From: a virus
Taxonomy: Duplodnaviria > Heunggongvirae > Uroviricota > Caudoviricetes
Direction: 5' to 3' (one strand)
DNA: 42,125 nucleotides
IMG/VR virus record: IMGVR_UViG_2537561991_000019
Coordinates: 1-42,125 of that record
The first letter of the stretch is position 1. The number at the start of each line of letters is the position of its first letter. Shown here piece by piece: positions 31,207 to 41,143 of this stretch. A program made the translations under genes and the position numbers. Under the pieces are notes generated by a model. It was not told where the DNA came from. It saw nothing but the letters and a program-made list of their open reading frames with translations, and did not search any database.

Positions 31207-32779
31207 ATGGACACCTCACTTGCTCATGAGAACGCCCGCCTGCGGGCACTGTTGCAGACGCAACAGGACACCATCCGCCAGATGGCTGAATACAACCGCC
31301 TGCTCTCACAGCGGGTGGCGGCTTATGCTTCCGAAATCAACCGGCTGAAGGCGCTGGTTGCGAAACTGCAACGTATGCAGTTCGGTAAAAGCTCAGAAAA
31401 ACTTCGTGCAAAAACCGAACGGCAGATACAGGAAGCACAGGAGCGAATCAGCGCACTTCAGGAAGAAATGGCGGAAACGCTGGGTGAGCAATATGACCCG
31501 GTACTGCCATCCGCCCTGCGCCAGTCTTCAGCCCGTAAACCGTTACCGGCCTCACTTCCCCGTGAAACCCGGGTTATCCGGCCGGAAGAGGAATGCTGTC
31601 CTGCCTGTGGTGGTGAACTCAGTTCTCTGGGATGTGATGTGTCAGAGCAACTGGAGCTTATCAGCAGCGCCTTTAAGGTTATCGAAACACAACGTCCGAA
31701 ACAGGCCTGTTGCCGGTGCGACCATATCGTGCAGGCACCAGTACCTTCAAAACCCATTGCACGCAGTTATGCCGGAGCGGGGCTTCTGGCCCATGTTGTC
31801 ACCGGGAAATATGCAGACCATCTGCCGTTATACCGCCAGTCAGAAATATACCGTCGTCAGGGAGTGGAGCTGAGCCGTGCCACACTGGGGCGCTGGACAG
31901 GTGCTGTTGCTGAACTGCTGGAGCCGCTGTATGACGTCCTGCGCCAGTATGTGCTGAATGCCCGGTAAAGTCCATGCTGATGATATCCCCGTCCCGGTCC
32001 AGGAGCCGGGCAGCGGTAAAACCCGGACAGCCCGGCTGTGGGTCTACGTCCGTGATGACCGTAACGCCGGTTCACAGATGCCCCCGGCGGTCTGGTTCGC
32101 GTACAGTCCGGACCGGAAAGGTATCCATCCACAAAATCACCTGGCCGGTTACAGCGGTGTGCTTCAGGCCGATGCTTACGGTGGTTACCGGGCGTTATAC
32201 GAATCCGGCAGAATAACGGAAGTCGCGTGTATGGCTCATGCCCGGAGAAAAATCCACGATGTGCATGCAAGAGCGCCCACCTACATCACCACGGAAGCCC
32301 TGCAGCGTATCGGTGAACTGTATGCCATCGAGGCAGAGGTCCGGGGCTGTTCAGCAGAACAGCGTCTGGCGGCAAGAAAAGCCAGAGCCGCGCCACTGAT
32401 GCAGTCACTGTATGACTGGATACAGCAACAGATGAAAACACTGTCGCGTCACTCAGATACGGCAAAAGCGTTCGCATACCTGCTGAAACAGTGGGATGCA
32501 CTGAACGTGTACTGCAGTAATGGCTGGGTGGAAATCGACAACAACATCGCAGAGAACGCCTTACGGGGAGTGGCCGTAGGCCGGAAAAACTGGATGTTCG
32601 CGGGTTCCGACAGCGGTGGTGAACATGCGGCGGTGTTGTACTCGCTGATCGGCACATGCCGTCTGAACAATGTGGAGCCAGAAAAGTGGCTGCGTTACGT
32701 CATTGAACATATCCAGGACTGGCCGGCAAACCGGGTACGCGATCTGTTGCCCTGGAAAGTTGATCTGAGCTCTCAGTAA
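31207..32779 (+). pseudogene. IS66-family transposase (orfC) interrupted by a frameshift near 31958-31968
   Basis: Two overlapping ORFs (253 aa and 273 aa) together have the length and features of one IS66 transposase (leucine-zipper-like N-terminus, CPACGGEL zinc-finger-like motif, catalytic core). Confidence 0.7.
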
Positions 32780-32808
32780 ATATCAATACGGTTCTGACGA
32801 GTCGCTTA

Positions 32809-33537
32809 CATCTTTTTCAGAACATCGTCATGACGTTTAGAGAAGAAGTCAGCAACAGCCAAAGAAGATGTAACAGCCTGACCATCAACGATGGCAATTT
32901 CAGGTTGAGAGAGGGTTGGGAGAGTAGTCATAGTGACAGCCCCGGTAGTCAGTTTTTTAGAAAACTCACCACATGGGACGCCAATCACAGAGGTGGTGAG
33001 ACGTACAGGGTTGGCGTTACCGGAGACTACCGAACCCGGCCCGACCGAAGTCGGCCCTGTACGCCCCACCATAATTTGGGCGTAGCAATGCTCATGACAC
33101 GAAAAAACCGCATGAGCGCGGTTATGCTCAGTAATCAATTTCAGGACGCCAATCCCGGCACCCGCTTTATAAGGTGCCTGAACAGTGTAACGTCCCGGAA
33201 TGGCAGAATCAATGTGCTGGTGGTCCTTCACACTCAACAAAATCACGCCTGAATTTCCACAAAGGACTAAAGCACTCATGCGGGTAGTCTTTGCGAAGAT
33301 AGATAACGCGCTGAGTTTCTGGCTCCCAACGAATAACATGGACATAAAGCCCTCTTCCATCACGAAACCAGCGGTTAAGTTCCTGCACAACTCGCCCCCC
33401 ACAGTCAGGTAAAGTTCTCTGTGGTTACTTACAGCCAGGTGATTTGGTAATCTGCATTCATGCCGTAACAACAGGTGTTCAGCGACACTGACCACCAGCT
33501 GTTGCGACAAACGGTTATTTGCCGTTAAACTGTTCAT
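32809..33537 (-). pseudogene. 5' portion of the IS-disrupted gene; its last 41 codons are the Rha-domain N-terminus
   Basis: MTTLPTLSQPEIAIVDGQAVTSSLAVADFFSKRHDDVLKK runs into the IS inverted repeat. The open frame extends upstream to an ATGA overlap with the preceding gene, so the true start is unclear. Confidence 0.5.
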
Positions 33538-34097
33538 GCGTTAGTTTCTCCACAGACACAAAACGCCACGACGCCCGGAGCTGCACACTCGCGGGCGTCA
33601 CTCTTTTCTAGAGCGCAAAAGATTTTGTAGACCAGTGCTGCATGCTCCTGGAGCTTCGAAATTGACAGATACAACTCATCATTAATTGCTGTCTGCTCGT
33701 GTGGCTCCACTACCCCATCTTCGATTGCCGAACGAATCTGCTTTGAGTAACTCCCGATCTGTTCGATGACTTCCAGCAGGCGCTGGTTTATATCGGCGTT
33801 CTCTACTTCCTCAATTTCAGGAAGCGATACAAACACCCCACCAGCAGACTGTGCGACAGCATCCGCAATGTAGTGAGTGCCAGCCGCGCGCTGTAAAATC
33901 ATTGCCCATCCCAGCGGGAAAATCTGATCGCCATCTGCACGAAGGCGGTTGAATAAAGCGTTCTCTGTTACATCCAGCCACTCAGCAGCTTCAGCGTAAC
34001 CCCCCGGCAACGCCGCGATAGTTTTTCTGACAGCTTTCACGTACCACTCAGGCTGTTTTTCTACTTTCCAGTGATGCTTACCCACGGTTAGCCTCAT
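33534..34097 (-). CDS. Putative CII-like early regulator (assigned by position after cro)
   Basis: 187-aa ORF directly downstream of cro and translationally coupled to the next gene; no confident sequence-level family call. Confidence 0.35.
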   Translation of the reverse strand: MRLTVGKHHWKVEKQPEWYVKAVRKTIAALPGGYAEAAEWLDVTENALFNRLRADGDQIFPLGWAMILQRAAGTHYIADAVAQSAGGVFVSLPEIEEVENADINQRLLEVIEQIGSYSKQIRSAIEDGVVEPHEQTAINDELYLSISKLQEHAALVYKIFCALEKSDARECAAPGVVAFCVCGETNA

Positions 34098-34128: not shown

Positions 34129-34329
34129 TTAATCTTTCGGATAGATATCCGGTCTTAAGTCAGATTTCGTAATTGCACCTGACGTGCATTGCTCAAGTTT
34201 TTTAGCCAACACAAAACTGGCTTTTTTATAACCATTGAAAACCAGCCGTAAGTAGCCTGATGTTGAGCCAACTTTTCCGGCCAACTCGCCCTGCTGTTCT
34301 TTGGTTAAAGAGTCCCAATACGCTTTCAT
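34129..34329 (-). CDS. cro: Cro-like HTH repressor
   Basis: 66 aa, MKAYWDSLTKEQQGELAGKVGSTSGYLRLVFNGYKK..., HTH pattern; divergent from the cI-like gene; GGAGG 10 nt upstream of the ATG. Confidence 0.7.
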   Translation of the reverse strand: MKAYWDSLTKEQQGELAGKVGSTSGYLRLVFNGYKKASFVLAKKLEQCTSGAITKSDLRPDIYPKD

Positions 34330-34335
34330 ACAATA

Positions 34336-34419: not shown

Positions 34420-35094
34420 ATGAAAACAGTCCATGACATCCGGCGGTCTAACGCCAGAAAACTGAGAGATGGTGTTGGCGGGAATTCTTCCTTTGCCACC
34501 ATGATTGATCGCGAGCCAACCCAGACCAGCAGGTTTATGGGAGATGGTGCTACTAAAAATATCGGTGACAGCATGGCACGGCACATCGAAAAATGTTTCG
34601 ACCTGCCTGTCGGATGGCTTGATCAAGAACACCAGACAACAAACATCACAAAAAAACCTGATGTTTCAATTACTAACAAACAAATAACGTTAGTCCCTGT
34701 CATATCATGGGTACAGGCCGGAGCATGGAAAGAAGTTGGCTATTCTGAGGTTGATTTGAGCACAGCAGAAACTTATCCCTGCCCTGTACCCTGTGGCGAA
34801 ATGACTTATATCTTGCGGGTGATTGGTGATTCAATGATTGATGAGTACCGCCCGGGAGACATGATTTTTGTTGATCCTGAAGTCCCTGCCTGCCACGGTG
34901 ACGACGTTATTGCATTGATGCACGATACAGGCGAAACCACCTTCAAGCGGTTGATAGAAGATGGAACACAGCGTTATCTCAAAGCATTAAACCCAAACTG
35001 GCCTGAGCCTTACATTAAGATTAACGGTAATTGCTCTATAATTGGTACAGTAATTTTCTCAGGAAAACCAAGAAGATACAAAATAAAGGCCTAA
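34420..35094 (+). CDS. cI: CI-type prophage repressor (N-terminal HTH, C-terminal S24 LexA-like autopeptidase domain)
   Basis: 224 aa; C-terminal RVIGDSM serine motif and an Ala-Gly candidate cleavage site (VQAGAW); divergent from cro; essentially leaderless. Confidence 0.85.
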   Translation: MKTVHDIRRSNARKLRDGVGGNSSFATMIDREPTQTSRFMGDGATKNIGDSMARHIEKCFDLPVGWLDQEHQTTNITKKPDVSITNKQITLVPVISWVQAGAWKEVGYSEVDLSTAETYPCPVPCGEMTYILRVIGDSMIDEYRPGDMIFVDPEVPACHGDDVIALMHDTGETTFKRLIEDGTQRYLKALNPNWPEPYIKINGNCSIIGTVIFSGKPRRYKIKA

Positions 35095-35106
35095 TCAATA
35101 TTTATA

Positions 35107-35129
35107 ACCTGCTTCGGCAGGTTTTTTTA
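35107..35129 (+). terminator. Intrinsic terminator after cI
   Basis: ACCTGC-TTCG-GCAGGT followed by TTTTTTT, 13 nt after the cI stop. Confidence 0.65.
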
Positions 35130-35132
35130 TAC

Positions 35133-35160
35133 TTGACAATGTACCCTTGAGATACATAAT
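35133..35160 (+). promoter_or_regulatory. PL-like early-left promoter with embedded operator
   Basis: -35 TTGACA (35133-35138), 16-nt spacer, -10 CATAAT (35155-35160); third operator copy TGTACC-CTTGA-GATACA at 35140-35156 overlaps spacer and -10. Confidence 0.5.
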
Positions 35161-35760
35161 GTATCTAAAAGAAACATGCCACAGGCAAGATTAAACAAAA
35201 TTTGCTTGTAACACGGCGTATGGCACATGCGTCGTTAGCGGTCTGGGGACGTTAAAGGGGACAATCCACTCCTTGCTCGGGCAAACAAACCAGGTAGCCG
35301 GAATGTGCAAGTCAATGAGGATGCTGATAAGACGCCTAACCAGCGTGGCGATTCGGTTTGACGCCTGGGAAGAGACCAGGGTGCAACGATGAGGGCATTT
35401 ATGGAGCCGCGACAAAGTGTGGTGCCGTAACTGGCTAAGTGCTCTCAGCGTTGTGGTAATCCGCGAAATGGCGCGGCGGTAAGTATGGCGGGGTTACTCT
35501 TTCCCCGTTGAGGACACCGGATTGTCAGGTTGACCATACGCCTGAGTGACAACCCCACCACAACAGCCACTGCTTTGGCGGTACCAGTTTGTGCACTTGC
35601 TTCCGGCTGGTACCGCTCTTTTTACAAAACAGAGAAGAGCATCACCGGACGACGGGCTCATAACCCAATCCATCCGGGCGGCTGCCACCGCAGGTGTTCT
35701 TCTCTGTTTTGTGGAGAAACCAACCGACCTTGCAGGGTCGATATGATGAGGAGCAGCAAA

Positions 35761-36123
35761 ATGGCTAGCGAACGCAGTACTGATGTGCAGGCATTTATCG
35801 GGGAGTTGGACGGCGGCGTATTTGAAACCAAAATCGGCGCAGTTCTCAGTGAAGTCGCTTCAGGTGTGATGAACACGAAAACCAAAGGTAAGGTCTCACT
35901 CAACCTGGAAATCGAACCATTTGATGAGAACCGTGTGAAAATCAAACACAAACTCTCATATGTTCGCCCGACTAACCGCGGGAAAATTTCTGAAGAAGAC
36001 ACCACCGAAACGCCGATGTATGTCAATCGCGGTGGTCGCCTGACTATTCTGCAGGAAGACCAGGGACAATTACTGACTCTTGCCGGTGAACCTGACGGAA
36101 AACTCCGCGCAGCAGGTCATTAA
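35761..36123 (+). CDS. Hypothetical early-left protein (yfdP-like by position)
   Basis: 120 aa from MASERSTDVQAF with GAGGAG upstream; first clear gene after a ~600-nt leader. Confidence 0.45.
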   Translation: MASERSTDVQAFIGELDGGVFETKIGAVLSEVASGVMNTKTKGKVSLNLEIEPFDENRVKIKHKLSYVRPTNRGKISEEDTTETPMYVNRGGRLTILQEDQGQLLTLAGEPDGKLRAAGH

Positions 36124-36188: not shown

Positions 36189-37013
36189 ATGTCTCAGAAC
36201 TTAGACGCAACCGCAATTAATCAAATCCATGCTCTTATTTCTGCTCAGGGTGTTAATGAAATTATCAGTAAGATTGGTGCCGATGCTGTGGCATTGCCTG
36301 AGAATTTCCGCATTCATGATCTGGAAAAATTTAATTTAAATCGCTTCCGTTTCCGTGGTGCGCTTTCCACTGCCAGCATCGATGACTTTACCCGTTATTC
36401 TAAAGATCTTGCAGATGAAGGCACCCGCTGCTTTATCGACGCCGATAATATGCGTGCCGTCAGTGTACTTAACCTGGGTACTATCGATGAACCAGGTCAC
36501 GCAGATAACACCGCCACTCTCAAACTGAAAAAGACAGCACCGTTCTCTGCCCTGTTGTCTGTTAACGGCGAGCGTAACTCCCAGAAGTCACTGGCAGAAT
36601 GGATTGAAGACTGGGCCGACTACCTTGTGGGCTTTGATGCTAATGGTGACGCCATTCAGGCAACCAAAGCGGCTGCGGCGATCCGTAAAATCACAATTGA
36701 AGCGAACCAGACAGCTGATTTTGAAGATAATGACTTCAGCGGCAAACGCTCCCTGATGGAGTCAGTCGAAGCGAAGACCAAAGACATTATGCCAGTGGCA
36801 TTTGAATTTAAATGCGTTCCGTTTGAAGGCCTGAAAGAACGTCCGTTTAAATTACGCCTCAGCATTATCACTGGCGATCGTCCTGTACTGGTTCTGCGCA
36901 TTATTCAGCTGGAAGCGGTGCAGGAAGAAATGGCTAACGAATTTCGTGATCTGCTTGTTGAGAAATTCAAAGACAGCAAAGTCGAAACCTTTATTGGTAC
37001 TTTCACCGCCTGA
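36189..37013 (+). CDS. yfdQ: YfdQ-like protein (DUF2303 family)
   Basis: 274 aa; size and position upstream of an HD-domain gene match the remembered CPS-53 yfdQ-yfdR arrangement. Confidence 0.6.
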
Positions 37014-37140
37014 TTTCATTACTGCAAATGCCCCTGCGGGGGCATTTATGGAAACGTAATTAACTCAATAATCACCGGATGGTGAGAGCTTCCTTTTACC
37101 AGAATTCAGCGCGGTGCAGCGCATATACGTGGAGAACAAA

Positions 37141-37677
37141 ATGTCATTTATTAAAACTTTTTCCGGGAAGCATTTTTATTATGACAAGATAAATAAAGAC
37201 GACATCGTGCTTAACGATATCGCAGTTTCCCTCTCAAATATCTGTCGCTTTGCAGGGCATCTTTCACACTTCTACAGCGTCGCCCAACATGCGGTGCTTT
37301 GCAGCCAGCTGGTACCGCAGGAGTTTGCTTTCGAAGCGTTAATGCATGATGCAACAGAAGCATATTGCCAGGACATCCCCGCGCCACTGAAACGACTTCT
37401 TCCTGACTATAAACGGATGGAAGAAAAAATAGACGCCGTAATCCGTGAGAAATACGGGTTACCTCCTGTTATGAGCACGCCAGTGAAATATGCCGATCTC
37501 ATTATGCTGGCAACCGAACGCCGCGATCTCGGGCTTGATGATGGCTCTTTCTGGCCTGTACTGGAAGGCATCCCGGCAACAGAGATGTTCAAAGTTATTC
37601 CACTGTCACCAGGCCATGCCTACGGGATGTTTATGGAACGTTTTAACGAGTTATCGGAATTACGCAAATGTGCATAA
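37141..37677 (+). CDS. yfdR: HD-domain phosphohydrolase (YfdR-like 5'-deoxynucleotidase)
   Basis: Start at MSFIKTF preceded by GGAGAA; HD-type metal-binding pattern (...AQHAVLC...MHDATEAY...). Confidence 0.7.
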   Translation: MSFIKTFSGKHFYYDKINKDDIVLNDIAVSLSNICRFAGHLSHFYSVAQHAVLCSQLVPQEFAFEALMHDATEAYCQDIPAPLKRLLPDYKRMEEKIDAVIREKYGLPPVMSTPVKYADLIMLATERRDLGLDDGSFWPVLEGIPATEMFKVIPLSPGHAYGMFMERFNELSELRKCA

Positions 37678-38546
37678 CTCATGTAGTTAGTTTTTCTGGC
37701 GGGAGAACATCTGCATATCTTGTTCACCTGATGGAAGAACAAAGAAAGACTGGAAATAACGTCTGCTACATCTTTATGGATACCGGTTGCGAACATCCGC
37801 TGACATACCGCTTTATTCGGGAGGTTGTGAAGTTCTGGGGCATACCGCTAACTGTGTTGCAGGTCGATATAAATCCAGAGCTTGGGCAGCCAAATGGTTA
37901 TACGGAATGGGAACCAAAGGATATTCAGACACGAATGCCGGTGCTTAAACCGTTTATGGACATGGTAAAAAAATATGGCACGCCATACATCGGCGGCGCG
38001 TTCTGCACTGACAGATTAAAACTCACCCCCTTCACAAAATACTGCGATGACCATTTCGGACGAGGGAATTACATCACATGGCTGGGTATTCGTGCAGACG
38101 AACCTCGTAGGCTGAAACCGAAATCGGGCGTCCGGTATCTTGCCGAGCTATCTGATTTTGATAAGTCGGATGTTATCCGGTGGTGGCATAAACAACCTTT
38201 TGATTTGCAAATCCCGGAGCACCTCGGGAACTGTGTTTTCTGCATCAAAAAGTCCACGCAAAAGCTGGGGCTTGCATGTAAAGACGAACCTGGTCTGATG
38301 CGAGTTTTTAATGAGCTGGTTACAGGTAAACACGTCCGGGATGGTCACCGAAAGACAAATAAAGACGTTATGTACCGTGGTCATCTGAGCCTTGACGGGA
38401 TTGCCAGAATGTATGCCGACAGCGACTACAGAAATTTGTATCAGGCGATGGTGCAAGCCAGGCGATTCGATACCGGCTCGTGTTCAGAGTCATGTGAAAT
38501 CTGGGGTGATCAATTGGAATTGAAATTCGAAGAGGTGGTGGCATGA
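37668..38546 (+). CDS. PAPS-reductase-like / PP-loop ATP pyrophosphatase family protein
   Basis: N-terminal SFSGGRTS PP-loop-like motif; overlaps the end of the yfdR-like gene. Confidence 0.6.
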   Translation: MCITHVVSFSGGRTSAYLVHLMEEQRKTGNNVCYIFMDTGCEHPLTYRFIREVVKFWGIPLTVLQVDINPELGQPNGYTEWEPKDIQTRMPVLKPFMDMVKKYGTPYIGGAFCTDRLKLTPFTKYCDDHFGRGNYITWLGIRADEPRRLKPKSGVRYLAELSDFDKSDVIRWWHKQPFDLQIPEHLGNCVFCIKKSTQKLGLACKDEPGLMRVFNELVTGKHVRDGHRKTNKDVMYRGHLSLDGIARMYADSDYRNLYQAMVQARRFDTGSCSESCEIWGDQLELKFEEVVA

Positions 38547-38746
38547 CAATCGTAAAAACCCATACCGGCATTGTGATCACCAAAGACGGCCCGCAGGTAA
38601 AAAAACTTCACCAGACAGAGCGGATGTGGGTCGTCGGCAAAAACGAGTTTTACCACAAAGAAACCGGACGCCGCCACTTTGCAGAAAATACGCGCCGCCG
38701 ACTACTGATCGACACCATCAAGCCTATCGAGGTGAAGCATGTTTAA
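38543..38746 (+). CDS. Small hypothetical protein
   Basis: 67-aa ORF overlapping the stops and starts of its neighbours in an operon-like arrangement. Confidence 0.35.
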   Translation: MTIVKTHTGIVITKDGPQVKKLHQTERMWVVGKNEFYHKETGRRHFAENTRRRLLIDTIKPIEVKHV

Positions 38747-38978
38747 ACAGAACGAAAAATCTATCGCTCAAATTGCTGAGTATATCCCGCGTGCGTGCCG
38801 GGGTATGCAGTTGCAGGAAGCCAAAGCACGCCTGGAGAAAAAAATTGCGCTCTATATCGATGACGGCTGTGATGCTGCCGTTCTTAACGCGGCGTTCGCG
38901 CCAGCTCTTAACAGTCATACGCGAGAGTCTTTTTTTTCGTGCATCGCTGCGCAGATCCGTAAAGGAGGCAACCAGTGA
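38739..38978 (+). CDS. Small hypothetical protein
   Basis: 79-aa ORF, translationally coupled to neighbours. Confidence 0.35.
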   Translation: MFKQNEKSIAQIAEYIPRACRGMQLQEAKARLEKKIALYIDDGCDAAVLNAAFAPALNSHTRESFFSCIAAQIRKGGNQ

Positions 38979-39373
38979 GCAAGATTGACTATCAGGCACT
39001 GCGTGAGGCGGCGGAACGTGCAATTCAAGCAATGGAACGCCTGTTAATGTTGCCAGCTGCTGATGATTTGTTAAGTGAACAGGAACTTAAAGATTACGGT
39101 GTGGATATTGATGTGCTCAACGCCTTCAAATTTCTGACCGGACCAGAAACCGTGCTGGCGCTGCTGGATGAACTAGAAGCTAAAAACAAACGCATTACAG
39201 AACTGGAAGCGAGGGAAGTTCAATTACCGACTCGCTACGACCTTCGATATGGGCACCCAATAAATGCTGATAAGCGACATGTCATGATACCTAAAGAAAA
39301 TGGCAGTTGGCTTTGCCTGATTGACTTAGAACACGCACTACGCGTCGCTGGCATTCGCATCAAAGGAGAGTGA
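38975..39373 (+). CDS. Hypothetical protein (possibly Ead/Ea22-like)
   Basis: 132-aa ORF with coiled-coil-like middle; family assignment uncertain. Confidence 0.35.
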   Translation: MSKIDYQALREAAERAIQAMERLLMLPAADDLLSEQELKDYGVDIDVLNAFKFLTGPETVLALLDELEAKNKRITELEAREVQLPTRYDLRYGHPINADKRHVMIPKENGSWLCLIDLEHALRVAGIRIKGE

Positions 39374-39374
39374 T

Positions 39375-39638
39375 ATGGCAACTTTGACAAAAAAGGAACA
39401 GGCATGGTTGAGCGAATTACAGAACGTTCTTGATCGCTGCCCGTCACCGAAAAAAATTGGTTTTTACACCATTGGCGATAAAAGCATTTACCTGTATGAC
39501 CTACGCCGCATGGATGAAATCATGGAGGCTCTTGATGATCGTTCGTCAATGGATTGGTGTGTTGCTGTCCATGATATGAATGCCGGATTTAAAGAAAAGA
39601 TTTTGTTCCCCTCGTCAGTTGAAAGCACTGCGGGTTAA
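39375..39638 (+). CDS. Small hypothetical protein
   Basis: 87-aa ORF in the same operon. Confidence 0.35.
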   Translation: MATLTKKEQAWLSELQNVLDRCPSPKKIGFYTIGDKSIYLYDLRRMDEIMEALDDRSSMDWCVAVHDMNAGFKEKILFPSSVESTAG

Positions 39639-39648
39639 GGAGTAACAC

Positions 39649-40227
39649 ATGACCACTATTACCAAAGAACGTATTGAATTGTTCATTAAAAATCCGCTTG
39701 GAAACGGACTTACCCGTGGCGAACAAATGGAACTGGCACGAATTGCACTGGCATCACTGGCAGCAGTATCGGATGAACGAGCAGCCTATGAATTATTTAT
39801 GGAGAAGCGTTTCGGGGAATCTGTAGATCGCCGCAGGGCGAAAAATGGCGATAGAGAATACATGGCATGGGATATGGCGCTTGGCTGGATTATCTGGTGT
39901 CACCGCGCCGCCATGCTTCAGGCTGGAAACTTTCGGGAAAATAAGGATTCGTCAACCAATAATTTTCGGGAAACCTCGGAAACGTCAACCAACTCTCCGG
40001 TAACTCCGGATAGTTGGATAAGCTGTAGTGAGCGAATGCCTGAGAAGAATCAGAACGTGCTCATTTCGGTGAATTTCGATAGCTCTCTGGTTGAACCGCT
40101 AATATGCTCCGCACGCTATACCGGAAGCACTTTTCGGCGCGGAGATGCAACGATTAAGTCGGGTAATGGTATTGAGCAAGCAACTCACTGGATGCCGCTA
40201 CCGGAACCGCCGCAGGAGGTGAAGTGA
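39649..40227 (+). CDS. Hypothetical protein with C-terminal DUF551-like region
   Basis: 192 aa; C-terminal ...WISCSERMPEKNQNVLIS...HWMPLPEPP... recalls DUF551 prophage proteins. Confidence 0.45.
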   Translation: MTTITKERIELFIKNPLGNGLTRGEQMELARIALASLAAVSDERAAYELFMEKRFGESVDRRRAKNGDREYMAWDMALGWIIWCHRAAMLQAGNFRENKDSSTNNFRETSETSTNSPVTPDSWISCSERMPEKNQNVLISVNFDSSLVEPLICSARYTGSTFRRGDATIKSGNGIEQATHWMPLPEPPQEVK

Positions 40228-40799
40228 TGAACAACTTAATGATCGACCTTGAGACGATGGGGAAAAATAAGGATGCGCCGATCGTTTCTATTGGCGCGGT
40301 GTTCTTCACTCCAGAAACCGGAGACATCGGACAAGAATTCTATGCGGTTGTCAGCCTGGACAGTGCTATGAAGCAAGGAGCTACACCTGACGGCGATACC
40401 ATCCTGTGGTGGTTGAAACAAAGCCCTGAAGCGCGAGCTGCAATCTGTATTGATGATACTTTGTCGATCAGCGATGCTCTCTCAGAACTAAACCATTTCA
40501 TTAACCGGCACGCAGACAATACGAAATATTTAAAAGTCTGGGGTAACGGGGCCACCTTCGACAACGTAATTTTACGTGGAGCTTATGAGCGAGCAGGACA
40601 AATCTGCCCGTGGGCGTACTGGAATGACCACGATGTACGCACGATCGTTACGCTTGGGCGTTCCATCGGATTCGACCCCAAAATGGACATGCCTTTCGAT
40701 GGCGAACGGCACAACGCCCTGGCTGATGCCCGTCATCAGGCAAAATATGTTTCCGCTATCTGGCAGAAATTAATTCCTGCCACCAGCACAGAATTATGA
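40224..40799 (+). CDS. DEDDh-type 3'-5' exonuclease
   Basis: IDLETMG (Exo I-like D-x-E) near the N-terminus and ...GERHNALADA... (Exo III-like H/D) near the C-terminus. Confidence 0.65.
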   Translation: MMNNLMIDLETMGKNKDAPIVSIGAVFFTPETGDIGQEFYAVVSLDSAMKQGATPDGDTILWWLKQSPEARAAICIDDTLSISDALSELNHFINRHADNTKYLKVWGNGATFDNVILRGAYERAGQICPWAYWNDHDVRTIVTLGRSIGFDPKMDMPFDGERHNALADARHQAKYVSAIWQKLIPATSTEL

Positions 40800-40808
40800 T
40801 TTTCCCGG

Positions 40809-41108
40809 GTGCAGCCGGTTTTGATGGAGAAAATTATGAACACCTTGTTTTTACTGATGGCTGAATTCAATACCCCAAACATTGAGCTGTCAGCTGTATG
40901 CCAAAAGTATTTCGGTATGAGCCCTAACACAGCAGAAGCGAAAGCAAATGCATGCCAGTTGCCGATCCCGACTTATCGTGTTGGTACATCACAGAAAGCA
41001 AAGCGCTGCATCAACATTCAGGATCTTGCTGAATATATAGATAAACGGCGTGAAGAAGGCAGAATTGAATGGGAGAGGGTAAGAACAAATAGGAAAATAA
41101 ATAACTAA
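40809..41108 (+). CDS. PrtN-like phage transcriptional activator / excisionase-like DNA-binding protein
   Basis: ...MNTLFLLMAEF...INIQDLAEYIDKRREEGR... resembles the PrtN (pyocin activator) family; last gene of the plus-strand operon. Start Met uncertain. Confidence 0.45.
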   Translation: MQPVLMEKIMNTLFLLMAEFNTPNIELSAVCQKYFGMSPNTAEAKANACQLPIPTYRVGTSQKAKRCINIQDLAEYIDKRREEGRIEWERVRTNRKINN

Positions 41109-41112
41109 TCTC

Positions 41113-41143
41113 ACAAAAAACCCGCTTCGGCGGGTTAGTTTTC
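41113..41143. terminator. Bidirectional intrinsic terminator between the convergent operons
   Basis: CCCGC-TTCG-GCGGG flanked by AAAAAA on one side and TTAGTTTTC on the other; sits between the plus-strand gene ending at 41108 and the minus-strand gene ending at 41135. Confidence 0.6.

Follow-up and report, generated by a model that had tools for sequence, protein, structure and literature searches.

A probable DicF-type processed leader, assembled from conserved folded RNA modules, behind the PL-like promoter of an N-less lambdoid phage

The window analysed here comprises all 42,125 nucleotides (nt) of the IMG/VR virus record IMGVR_UViG_2537561991_000019 (Caudoviricetes) and includes a lambdoid immunity region, recognised from the translations of its open reading frames (ORFs) and from Pfam matches. 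A gene for a cI-like S24 repressor (34420-35094, plus strand; Pfam Peptidase_S24) is accompanied on the minus strand by a Cro/YdaS-like gene (34132-34335) and a CII (CP76)-like gene (33537-34097). The repressor gene is followed on the plus strand by an intrinsic terminator (35106-35130), a 7-base-pair (bp) GC-rich hairpin with a T-run at 35106-35123, and the same feature carries a terminator annotation in phages Ayreon and SfV. Next comes a PL-like sigma-70 promoter (35133-35160, plus strand), in which TTGACA and CATAAT are separated by a 16-nt spacer and 11 of 12 consensus positions are matched; the Ayreon record annotates it as a promoter. An operator-like inverted repeat, ATGTACCcttgagATACAT, overlaps this promoter, and its half-sites can be read again in the cro-side operators. 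Transcription is expected to start near 35167. Between the promoter and yfdP, the first gene of the early-left operon, lies a leader of about 600 nt, all of whose features described below are on the plus strand. This leader, assembled from folded RNA modules that are related to the precursor of DicF, a small RNA (sRNA) of cell division, is the subject of this study.

The yfdP region (35725-36123) begins with a small hairpin (35725-35740) and a Shine-Dalgarno sequence, GAGGAG (35748-35753); the gene starts with ATG at 35761 and encodes 120 amino acids (aa) that match no Pfam family. In diverged phages YfdP is intact and full-length at 60-74% aa identity. The leader upstream of it has a GC content of 0.54-0.565 across 35200-35700, compared with 0.335-0.46 in the flanks, and contains mechanical ORFs of 26-74 aa as well as a 197-aa ORF that starts with TTG and runs into yfdP. 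The Ayreon, mEp460 and cdtI records list some of these ORFs as hypothetical proteins. Homologues at 75-85% DNA identity show the ORFs hit by stops and frameshifts and interrupted by length-variable insertions; they have no Pfam match, and the substitutions follow compensatory pairing instead of a codon-like pattern. Since the leader ORFs break in homologues whereas YfdP stays intact, comparison across phages marks the leader as a real, noncoding element. The first-pass annotation had described an ORF-poor, GC-rich leader of this length after a PL-like promoter and without an N-like gene. Promoter, length and base composition are as it had placed them, and Pfam found no N-type antiterminator among the leader and neighbouring ORFs submitted. 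'ORF-poor' holds with a qualification, given the mechanical ORFs of 39-74 aa and the 197-aa frame.

Folding points in the same direction as conservation. Relative to shuffled sequence, the plus strand of the leader reaches z = −5.7 and the minus strand z = −2.9, and the conserved G-U pairs in the modules A, B and C introduced below are compatible with the plus strand alone. Rfam 15 recognised no family in the leader (35165-35760) at gathering score and gave chance-level matches at most at E <= 10; the sole families reaching gathering score in the window are C4 and isrK (32989-33177, minus strand). The tRNA model RF00005 did not match the leader at E <= 10, and ARAGORN detected no tRNA or transfer-messenger RNA in the window. 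The mEp460 leader, likewise, is without any Rfam family and without a tRNA match at E <= 10. Among the checks that the first-pass annotation had named, the covariance-model scan of the leader thus came back empty, and both folding and comparative alignment bore out a structured RNA, the latter through compensatory changes in modules A, B and C.

Searches of phage genomes with BLAST find parts of the leader separately elsewhere. The segment 35200-35456 (module A) occurs in P1, P7, the Uetakeviruses phiV10, TL-2011b and SPN1S, a Klebsiella phage and mEp390; 35450-35572 (module B) in PPompW prophages, Evi and a phage deposited as Actinobacillus phage; and 35575-35765 (module C) in SfV, SfII and ST64B. 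Of 5426 complete Escherichia coli genomes, 4769 contain some portion of the leader. These distributions present the leader as a mosaic of four conserved folded RNA modules, namely A, B, a DicF-like terminator hairpin and C, which recombine as exchangeable units. The recently described prophage Pas sRNAs occur in other contexts (the Q, holin and RusA regions) and are distinct from this leader.

Close to the expected transcript start, minimum-free-energy and centroid folds predict a small hairpin (35182-35208) of the form CAGGCAAG...UUUGCUUG, which ends in GUUGUAAC and directly precedes module A. The UUGGUUGUAAC junction before module A is common to mEp460 and P1. The core of module A (35212-35383), about 170 nt long, is resolved by the alignments into four helices and a pseudoknot: helix P1 (35214-35222 with 35226-35234), helix P2 (35242-35246 with 35290-35294), helix P3 (35332-35335 with 35343-35346), helix P4 (35364-35368 with 35376-35380) and the pseudoknot (35338-35341 with 35355-35358). 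In the latter, the P3 loop AACC pairs with GGUU; other lineages have CACC with GGUG, a switch seen also between two otherwise similar Kosakonia copies. Among 36 diverse sequences, 96.2% of the cells are paired and both sides have changed in 12 of 27 pairs. Not one of 500 shuffles reached the observed covariation, and slid controls stayed at or below 0.082, compared with 0.296 observed. The covariance model R1 scores 135.9 bits at module A and finds this single copy in the window, on the PL side, with none on the PR side. It detects no module A in Qin-type loci, SfV, ST64B or HK022.

The most constant part of module A is a near-invariant 19-mer, GGUAGCCGGAAUGUGCAAG (35293-35311), of which the first base or two pair in helix P2 and the remainder lies outside the tested helices. 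Its exact form was found in at least 119 IMG/VR contigs and at 24 genome loci; among 148 loci seeded independently from the P1 hairpin, 142 contain it exactly and 5 with a single substitution. The 24 loci of this species-level genome scan come from about 20 genomes, which belong to Enterobacterales genera except for two metagenome bins. In these two, the 19-mer lies on contigs L141 and L153, labelled Oscillospiraceae and Bacillota; the likely explanation is enterobacterial phage DNA placed in the wrong bin, or coincidence. About 4 matches to the 19-mer are expected by chance in the genome contig collection. Module A is present in 1834 of the 5426 complete E. coli genomes and is unannotated in every record listed. 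It corresponds to no Rfam family, and no paper turned up in a full-text literature search for strings that are invariant in modules A and B. Module A is a widespread and well-supported structured RNA absent from Rfam and from RefSeq annotation.

A promoter-like site lies within 140 nt upstream of module A in 28% of distinct contexts, as against 6% of background windows, and often about 50 nt away; in this window about 45 nt separate module A from the expected transcription start. A short unit composed of module A, tRNA-Arg(UCU), a AAUCACGCC...GUGAU hairpin and a UUGGCGG-type terminator hairpin was observed in the Klebsiella phage and in Uetakeviruses (phiV10-like, SPN1S). This unit is opposite in orientation to the surrounding terminase and portal genes, as in a moron (L006 2501-2900; L008 1400-1800; L009 1440-1800).

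Folding and covariation add a closing stem to module A, in which 35384-35397 pairs with 35440-35453. This stem of about 14 bp with one A.G mismatch encloses a variable insert (35398-35439) whose length differs by well over 100 nt among homologues, and the whole element (35384-35453) folds at −33.9 kcal/mol. The pairing GAGAGCA/UGCUCUC becomes AAGAGCA/UGCUCUU or GAGCGCAC/GUGCGCUC in homologues. Where the stem is found, it is followed by tRNA-Arg(UCU), by module B or by another structured unit, and a UUGGCGG-type hairpin usually lies further on, beyond that unit. Five bases, GUUGU (35450-35454), take part both in the closing stem of A, on its 3' side, and in that of B, on its 5' side, so that the two helices are mutually exclusive and compete. 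This competition could act as a processing-dependent switch, and by analogy with the homologous Qin stem we propose the closing stem of module A as a site for RNase III.

Module B (35450-35564) leads directly to the known system, as it is recognised by identity to prophage Qin and by covariation as a homologue of the pre-DicF body. In E. coli K-12, DicF is excised from the dicBF transcript, with RNase E yielding a 53-nt form whose 3' end is a Rho-independent terminator (PMC5069750; bioRxiv 10.1101/2023.04.14.536235). The 5' end of a 190-nt pre-DicF is created by RNase III, as mapped experimentally in K-12 (bioRxiv 10.1101/2023.04.14.536235). Hfq-dependent action in trans is likewise known for the Qin locus. 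The window segment 35450-35572 is 89% identical over 123 nt to the K-12 Qin segment just upstream of dicF, 35574-35590 is 94% identical to dicF itself, and module B is 75% identical to the start of the P1 ban leader. Among the options that the first-pass annotation had offered, namely an antitermination element, a processed sRNA or very small proteins, the processed sRNA is thus the one best matched.

The fold of module B consists of a closing stem (35450-35457 with 35557-35564; GUUGUGGY with RYYRCAAC), a CCGCG/CGCGG hairpin (35461-35465 with 35472-35476), an H-type pseudoknot formed by GUAUGG/CCAUAC (35483-35488 with 35534-35539) and GUUGUCA/UGACAAC (35520-35527 with 35547-35554), and a variable inner hairpin (35489-35493 with 35503-35507). 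In 19 representatives 94.1% of the cells are paired, and 6 pairs have changed on both sides. A long stem, which in the window is the closing stem of module A, folds alike in Qin and in the window; judged by its length, the 190-nt species would begin about 6 nt upstream of the Qin GUUGUGG, where module B starts, inside the Qin version of this stem. In Uetakevirus phages the slot of module B is taken by tRNA-Arg(UCU). Downstream of dicF in Qin (L013 2436-2600), read by eye, UUUUGUGAUG could pair with CAUCACAAAA some 130 nt further on and so enclose a GUGAAUGCGG... unit like those found behind module A in other loci. For the 72-nt DicF, the 3' end reported to be made by RNase III would fall within the 5' strand of this putative stem.

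Behind module B lies the DicF-like 3' element, UUUGGCGGUACCAGUUU (35565-35624), with a stem at 35577-35587/35607-35617 and a U-tract at 35619-35623. The hairpin folds at −24.3 kcal/mol and runs into UCUUUUU. A stem and a U-run are found downstream of module B in all 20 representatives aligned, with stems and loops that vary by lineage. We propose, as part of the model, that this hairpin serves as an intrinsic terminator and as the 3' end of an sRNA, and module B together with the hairpin is homologous to pre-DicF. As the hairpins differ by lineage and Rfam recognises DicF, among the variants tested, in K-12 and in locus L159 only, module B looks like a platform carrying interchangeable terminator-type 3' hairpins, only some of which are canonical DicF.

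At this point the first-pass annotation had seen a boxA-like sequence that forms part of a hairpin between GCTCTT and AAGAGC. The string in question, CCGCTCTTTTTAC at 35613-35625, coincides with the closing bases of the 3' arm of the terminator and with the U-tract behind them. GCTCTT (35615-35620) and AAGAGC (35635-35640) could pair, but their bases belong to the terminator and to stem C, which are the conserved helices. In homologues the GCUCUU core reads GCCCUU, GACCUU or CAAUUU (GCCCTT, GACCTT or CAATTT in DNA), and therefore neither a boxA nor this alternative hairpin is conserved.

In some prophages isrK and C4 lie on the same strand within about 300 nt after module B and its 3' hairpin (L159 4650-5234; L226 775-1359); the hairpin is a canonical DicF in L159 and is not called DicF by Rfam in L226. 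This arrangement suggests that the leader RNA modules recombine with immI-type RNAs. In the window itself, Rfam places isrK (59.3 bits) and the C4 antisense RNA (82.3 bits) on the PR side, downstream of the CII-like gene (32989-33177, minus strand), as an immI-type module. The Rha/antirepressor-like ORF that comes after them is apparently truncated and adjoins a transposase-like ORF (31958-32779, 32806-33537).

In the last module, C, the bases 35619-35643 pair with 35693-35717 in a stem of about 24 bp. This stem, which starts on its 5' side within the terminator U-tract, encloses two hairpins. On 14 homologues, RNAalifold predicts 29 pairs; compensatory changes affect 5 of these, and U-G pairs are among those conserved. 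For the segment 35613-35760, in which the stem lies, the folding energy is −63.5 kcal/mol. From the end of the stem it is about 45 nt to the yfdP start codon and about 30 nt to the Shine-Dalgarno sequence, and module C travels with yfdP in SfV, ST64B and others. In the model we propose it as an RNase III site that would part the sRNA portion from the yfdP mRNA. The hairpin GGG-CUCAUAA-CCC (CGGGCUCAUAACCC; 35653-35666) matches the anticodon arm of the E. coli initiator tRNA (metY positions 29-42) exactly over 14 nt. This is the longest substring shared with metY; the mean over 300 shuffles was 7.5 nt and the highest value 12 nt. Two of its G-C pairs are invariant among the 14 homologues, the third is present in 12 of them and the UCAU loop core in all 14. 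The copy could be a mimic, a decoy or a relic.

Beyond yfdP, the early-left operon (36189-41108, plus strand) includes YfdQ (DUF2303), an HD-domain YfdR-like 5'-deoxynucleotidase and several small ORFs. By eye, a PAPS-reductase-like gene (37668-38546), a DnaQ-like exonuclease gene (40224-40799) and an excisionase gene (40809-41108) can be added, and a bidirectional terminator at 41119-41136 closes the operon. A simple scan for terminator-like sites on the plus strand, from yfdP to the operon end at 41119-41136, gave weak sites except for one 9-bp candidate at 40274. With internal terminators this weak, a single attenuator at the start of the operon would be sufficient, and processive antitermination is not required.

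Can these modules be combined into one account of the leader? It is, in our view, probably a PL-driven noncoding precursor of stable RNAs combined with an attenuator before yfdP, and its construction resembles that of the Qin dicF locus and the P1 ban-operon leader. We infer termination at the hairpin, cleavage by RNase III, action in trans and any role of module A beyond scaffold or processing. In this sequence of events, inactivation of the repressor would allow the PL-like promoter to fire, and many transcripts would end at the DicF-like hairpin. RNase III would then cut the closing stem of module A, releasing a 5' RNA with module A and a second product, some 170 nt long, that comprises module B and the hairpin and would be the counterpart of the 190-nt pre-DicF. 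This second RNA, or a shorter 3' product, might act in trans on host mRNAs in the manner of DicF. Transcripts that read through would form stem C and be cut there to give the mRNA of the yfdP operon.

Several observations weigh against this account. The Rfam DicF model (RF00039, threshold 48 bits) finds no match in 35050-35850 at E <= 10, although it recognised, as the sole two of the variants tested, K-12 (76.7 bits) and L159 (61.1 bits), which served as positive controls. The window hairpin is without the RNase E-generated 5' part of DicF. A predicted duplex between the DicF-like hairpin and the ftsZ translation-initiation region was no better than with shuffled sequence, and we therefore claim no target. 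The covariation of module B is modest, which is explained by the closeness of the sequences to one another. Finally, a mere scaffold would not need a near-invariant, largely unpaired 19-mer, so that module A probably does something specific that a precursor account does not cover.

This last point is where the alternatives begin. Module A might be an autonomous functional RNA, such as a riboswitch-like sensor, a self-cleaving ribozyme or a protein-binding RNA, that chooses between the closing stems of A and B and thereby governs what becomes of the RNA downstream. A pseudoknot with four covarying helices, the high conservation outside them, two mutually exclusive closing stems sharing GUUGU and recombination as a unit before different cargos, all in an RNA without an Rfam family, would suit such a function. 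However, neither a ligand nor a protein partner or cleavage site can be inferred from the sequence, and no consistent neighbouring gene indicates a metabolite. We regard this explanation as unlikely, if worth keeping in mind. A wider form of the idea takes module A with its closing stem (35212-35453) as a new structured RNA class, a ribozyme or a ligand- or RNA-polymerase-binding RNA, that sets cutting or termination against read-through, replaces N in N-less lambdoid prophages and was recruited by P1 and the Uetakeviruses; this we hold to be doubtful.

A put-like RNA has been suggested for N-less lambdoid phages related to 2H10 (PMC12315714), and 2H10 carries this leader. Module A could accordingly be imagined as a cis-acting put-like RNA through which RNA polymerase or the nascent transcript is modified to pass the DicF-like terminator, in place of N. 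The phage is without N, module A sits between the expected transcription start and a strong terminator, and both the enrichment of promoter-like sites upstream of it and its nearly invariant segments outside the tested helices would fit. Yet there is no sequence similarity to HK022 putL or putR, a blastn comparison with the HK022 immunity region giving a 13-nt chance match at most, and the one copy in the window has no counterpart on the PR side. SfV and ST64B share the yfdP operon and a terminator-type hairpin without module A. In Uetakeviruses the unit that begins with module A is short and contains a tRNA and a small ORF; the P1 copy stands immediately ahead of ban, at a distance of 2.3 kb from Pban. 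The left operon, moreover, is without another clearly strong internal terminator to be passed. Such a role seems distinctly improbable to us.

Modules B and C have also to be considered as tRNA mimics, that is, as decoys or sensors that might titrate an anticodon nuclease or a tRNA-binding enzyme. Enterobacterial VapC toxins reportedly cleave the anticodon loop of initiator tRNA, a finding said to go back to Winther and Gerdes in 2011, and the exact, conserved 14-nt copy of the tRNA-fMet anticodon arm would offer a matching bait. Module B stands where Uetakeviruses have tRNA-Arg, its closing stem is acceptor-like, and P1 has real tRNAs in its corresponding leader. The tRNA models, however, match neither B nor C nor related units, and the hairpin may be a relic of a tRNA gene. 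We give this reading very little weight.

Two further readings, nut/N and small proteins, fail direct tests. A lambda-type nutL with boxA and boxB, served by an unrecognised N-like protein, could be based on CGCUCUUUUUAC, which resembles the boxA consensus known from lambda and rrn boxA, but a CGCUCUUA-like boxA is not conserved, the string being terminator 3' arm and U-tract, no conserved boxB-type hairpin lies downstream, there is no N-like ORF, and YfdP and SfV orf33 are not arginine-rich; we consider it hardly credible. SfV orf33, which stands in place of modules A and B there, was also tried as a candidate N and is not N-like. That the leader encodes small proteins, as the first-pass annotation had allowed and as the ORFs of 26-74 aa annotated in part in Ayreon, mEp460 and cdtI might suggest, is just as implausible given the decay of these ORFs in homologues, their lack of Pfam matches and the compensatory substitutions.

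Returning to the precursor-and-attenuator account, the leader shows what lies behind PL in a large and medically relevant group of N-less lambdoid prophages, which includes cdtI, Stx2c-converting phages, SfV, mEp460, 2H10 and CPS-53 relatives. It extends the biology of DicF, as the body of the 190-nt precursor would be a conserved pseudoknotted platform with interchangeable 3' hairpins. It also brings to light, in module A, an unannotated covarying RNA without an Rfam family that a third of complete E. coli genomes contain, as do P1 and Uetakeviruses. How an intrinsic terminator placed directly after an early promoter is passed becomes a testable question in these phages.

How does this leader compare with known systems? 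With the lambda nutL/N leader it shares its position after PL and a long stem immediately before the first gene; the lambda N leader is cut by RNase III. Unlike lambda, the window has no N gene and no conserved boxA or boxB. HK022 put, which brings about processive antitermination in cis through the zinc domain of the RNA polymerase beta' subunit, resembles it as a structured RNA just downstream of PL in an N-less lambdoid phage. Put, however, is about 70 nt long, with two stem-loops, and occurs at both PL and PR, whereas the window RNA is far larger, occurs once and is followed by an sRNA-type terminator. The C4 RNA of P1 and P7 and the CI RNA of P4, which are processed by RNase P or RNase III, are likewise structured RNAs carved from early-operon leaders; the C4 and isrK pair is present on the PR side of the window, and neither family matches the PL leader.

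Closer still is the P1 ban leader, in which module B and then a terminator hairpin come right after the C1-controlled Pban, and in which the module A core recurs after tRNA-Ile, directly before ban. Here the order is reversed compared with the window, B preceding A with 2.3 kb of tRNAs and small genes in between, and P1 module A is without the closing stem and abuts the ban ribosome-binding site. In the P1 sequence, module B and the terminator hairpin overlap an annotated 'dicF-like region' (L005 730-883), and the record has no annotation at the site of the module A core (L005 3001-3185), which lies behind tRNA-Ile and ahead of the ban start codon.

The most instructive comparison is with the dicF locus of Qin. 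Both are part of a repressor-controlled early operon, both run from body to hairpin to U-run, the hairpin starts with UUUGGCGGUAxCAGUUU in each, and a long stem lies upstream, which in Qin would hold the RNase III 5' end of the 190-nt species. The window differs from Qin in being without the 5' third of DicF (UUUCUGGUGACG) and the AU-rich RNase E site, and in its hairpin loop. The Qin unit, moreover, follows ydfABC and is without the module A core, whereas the unit of the window is promoter-proximal and stands behind module A. Set beside these systems, the leader is best described, with reasonable though not high confidence, as a variant form of a DicF-type processed leader.

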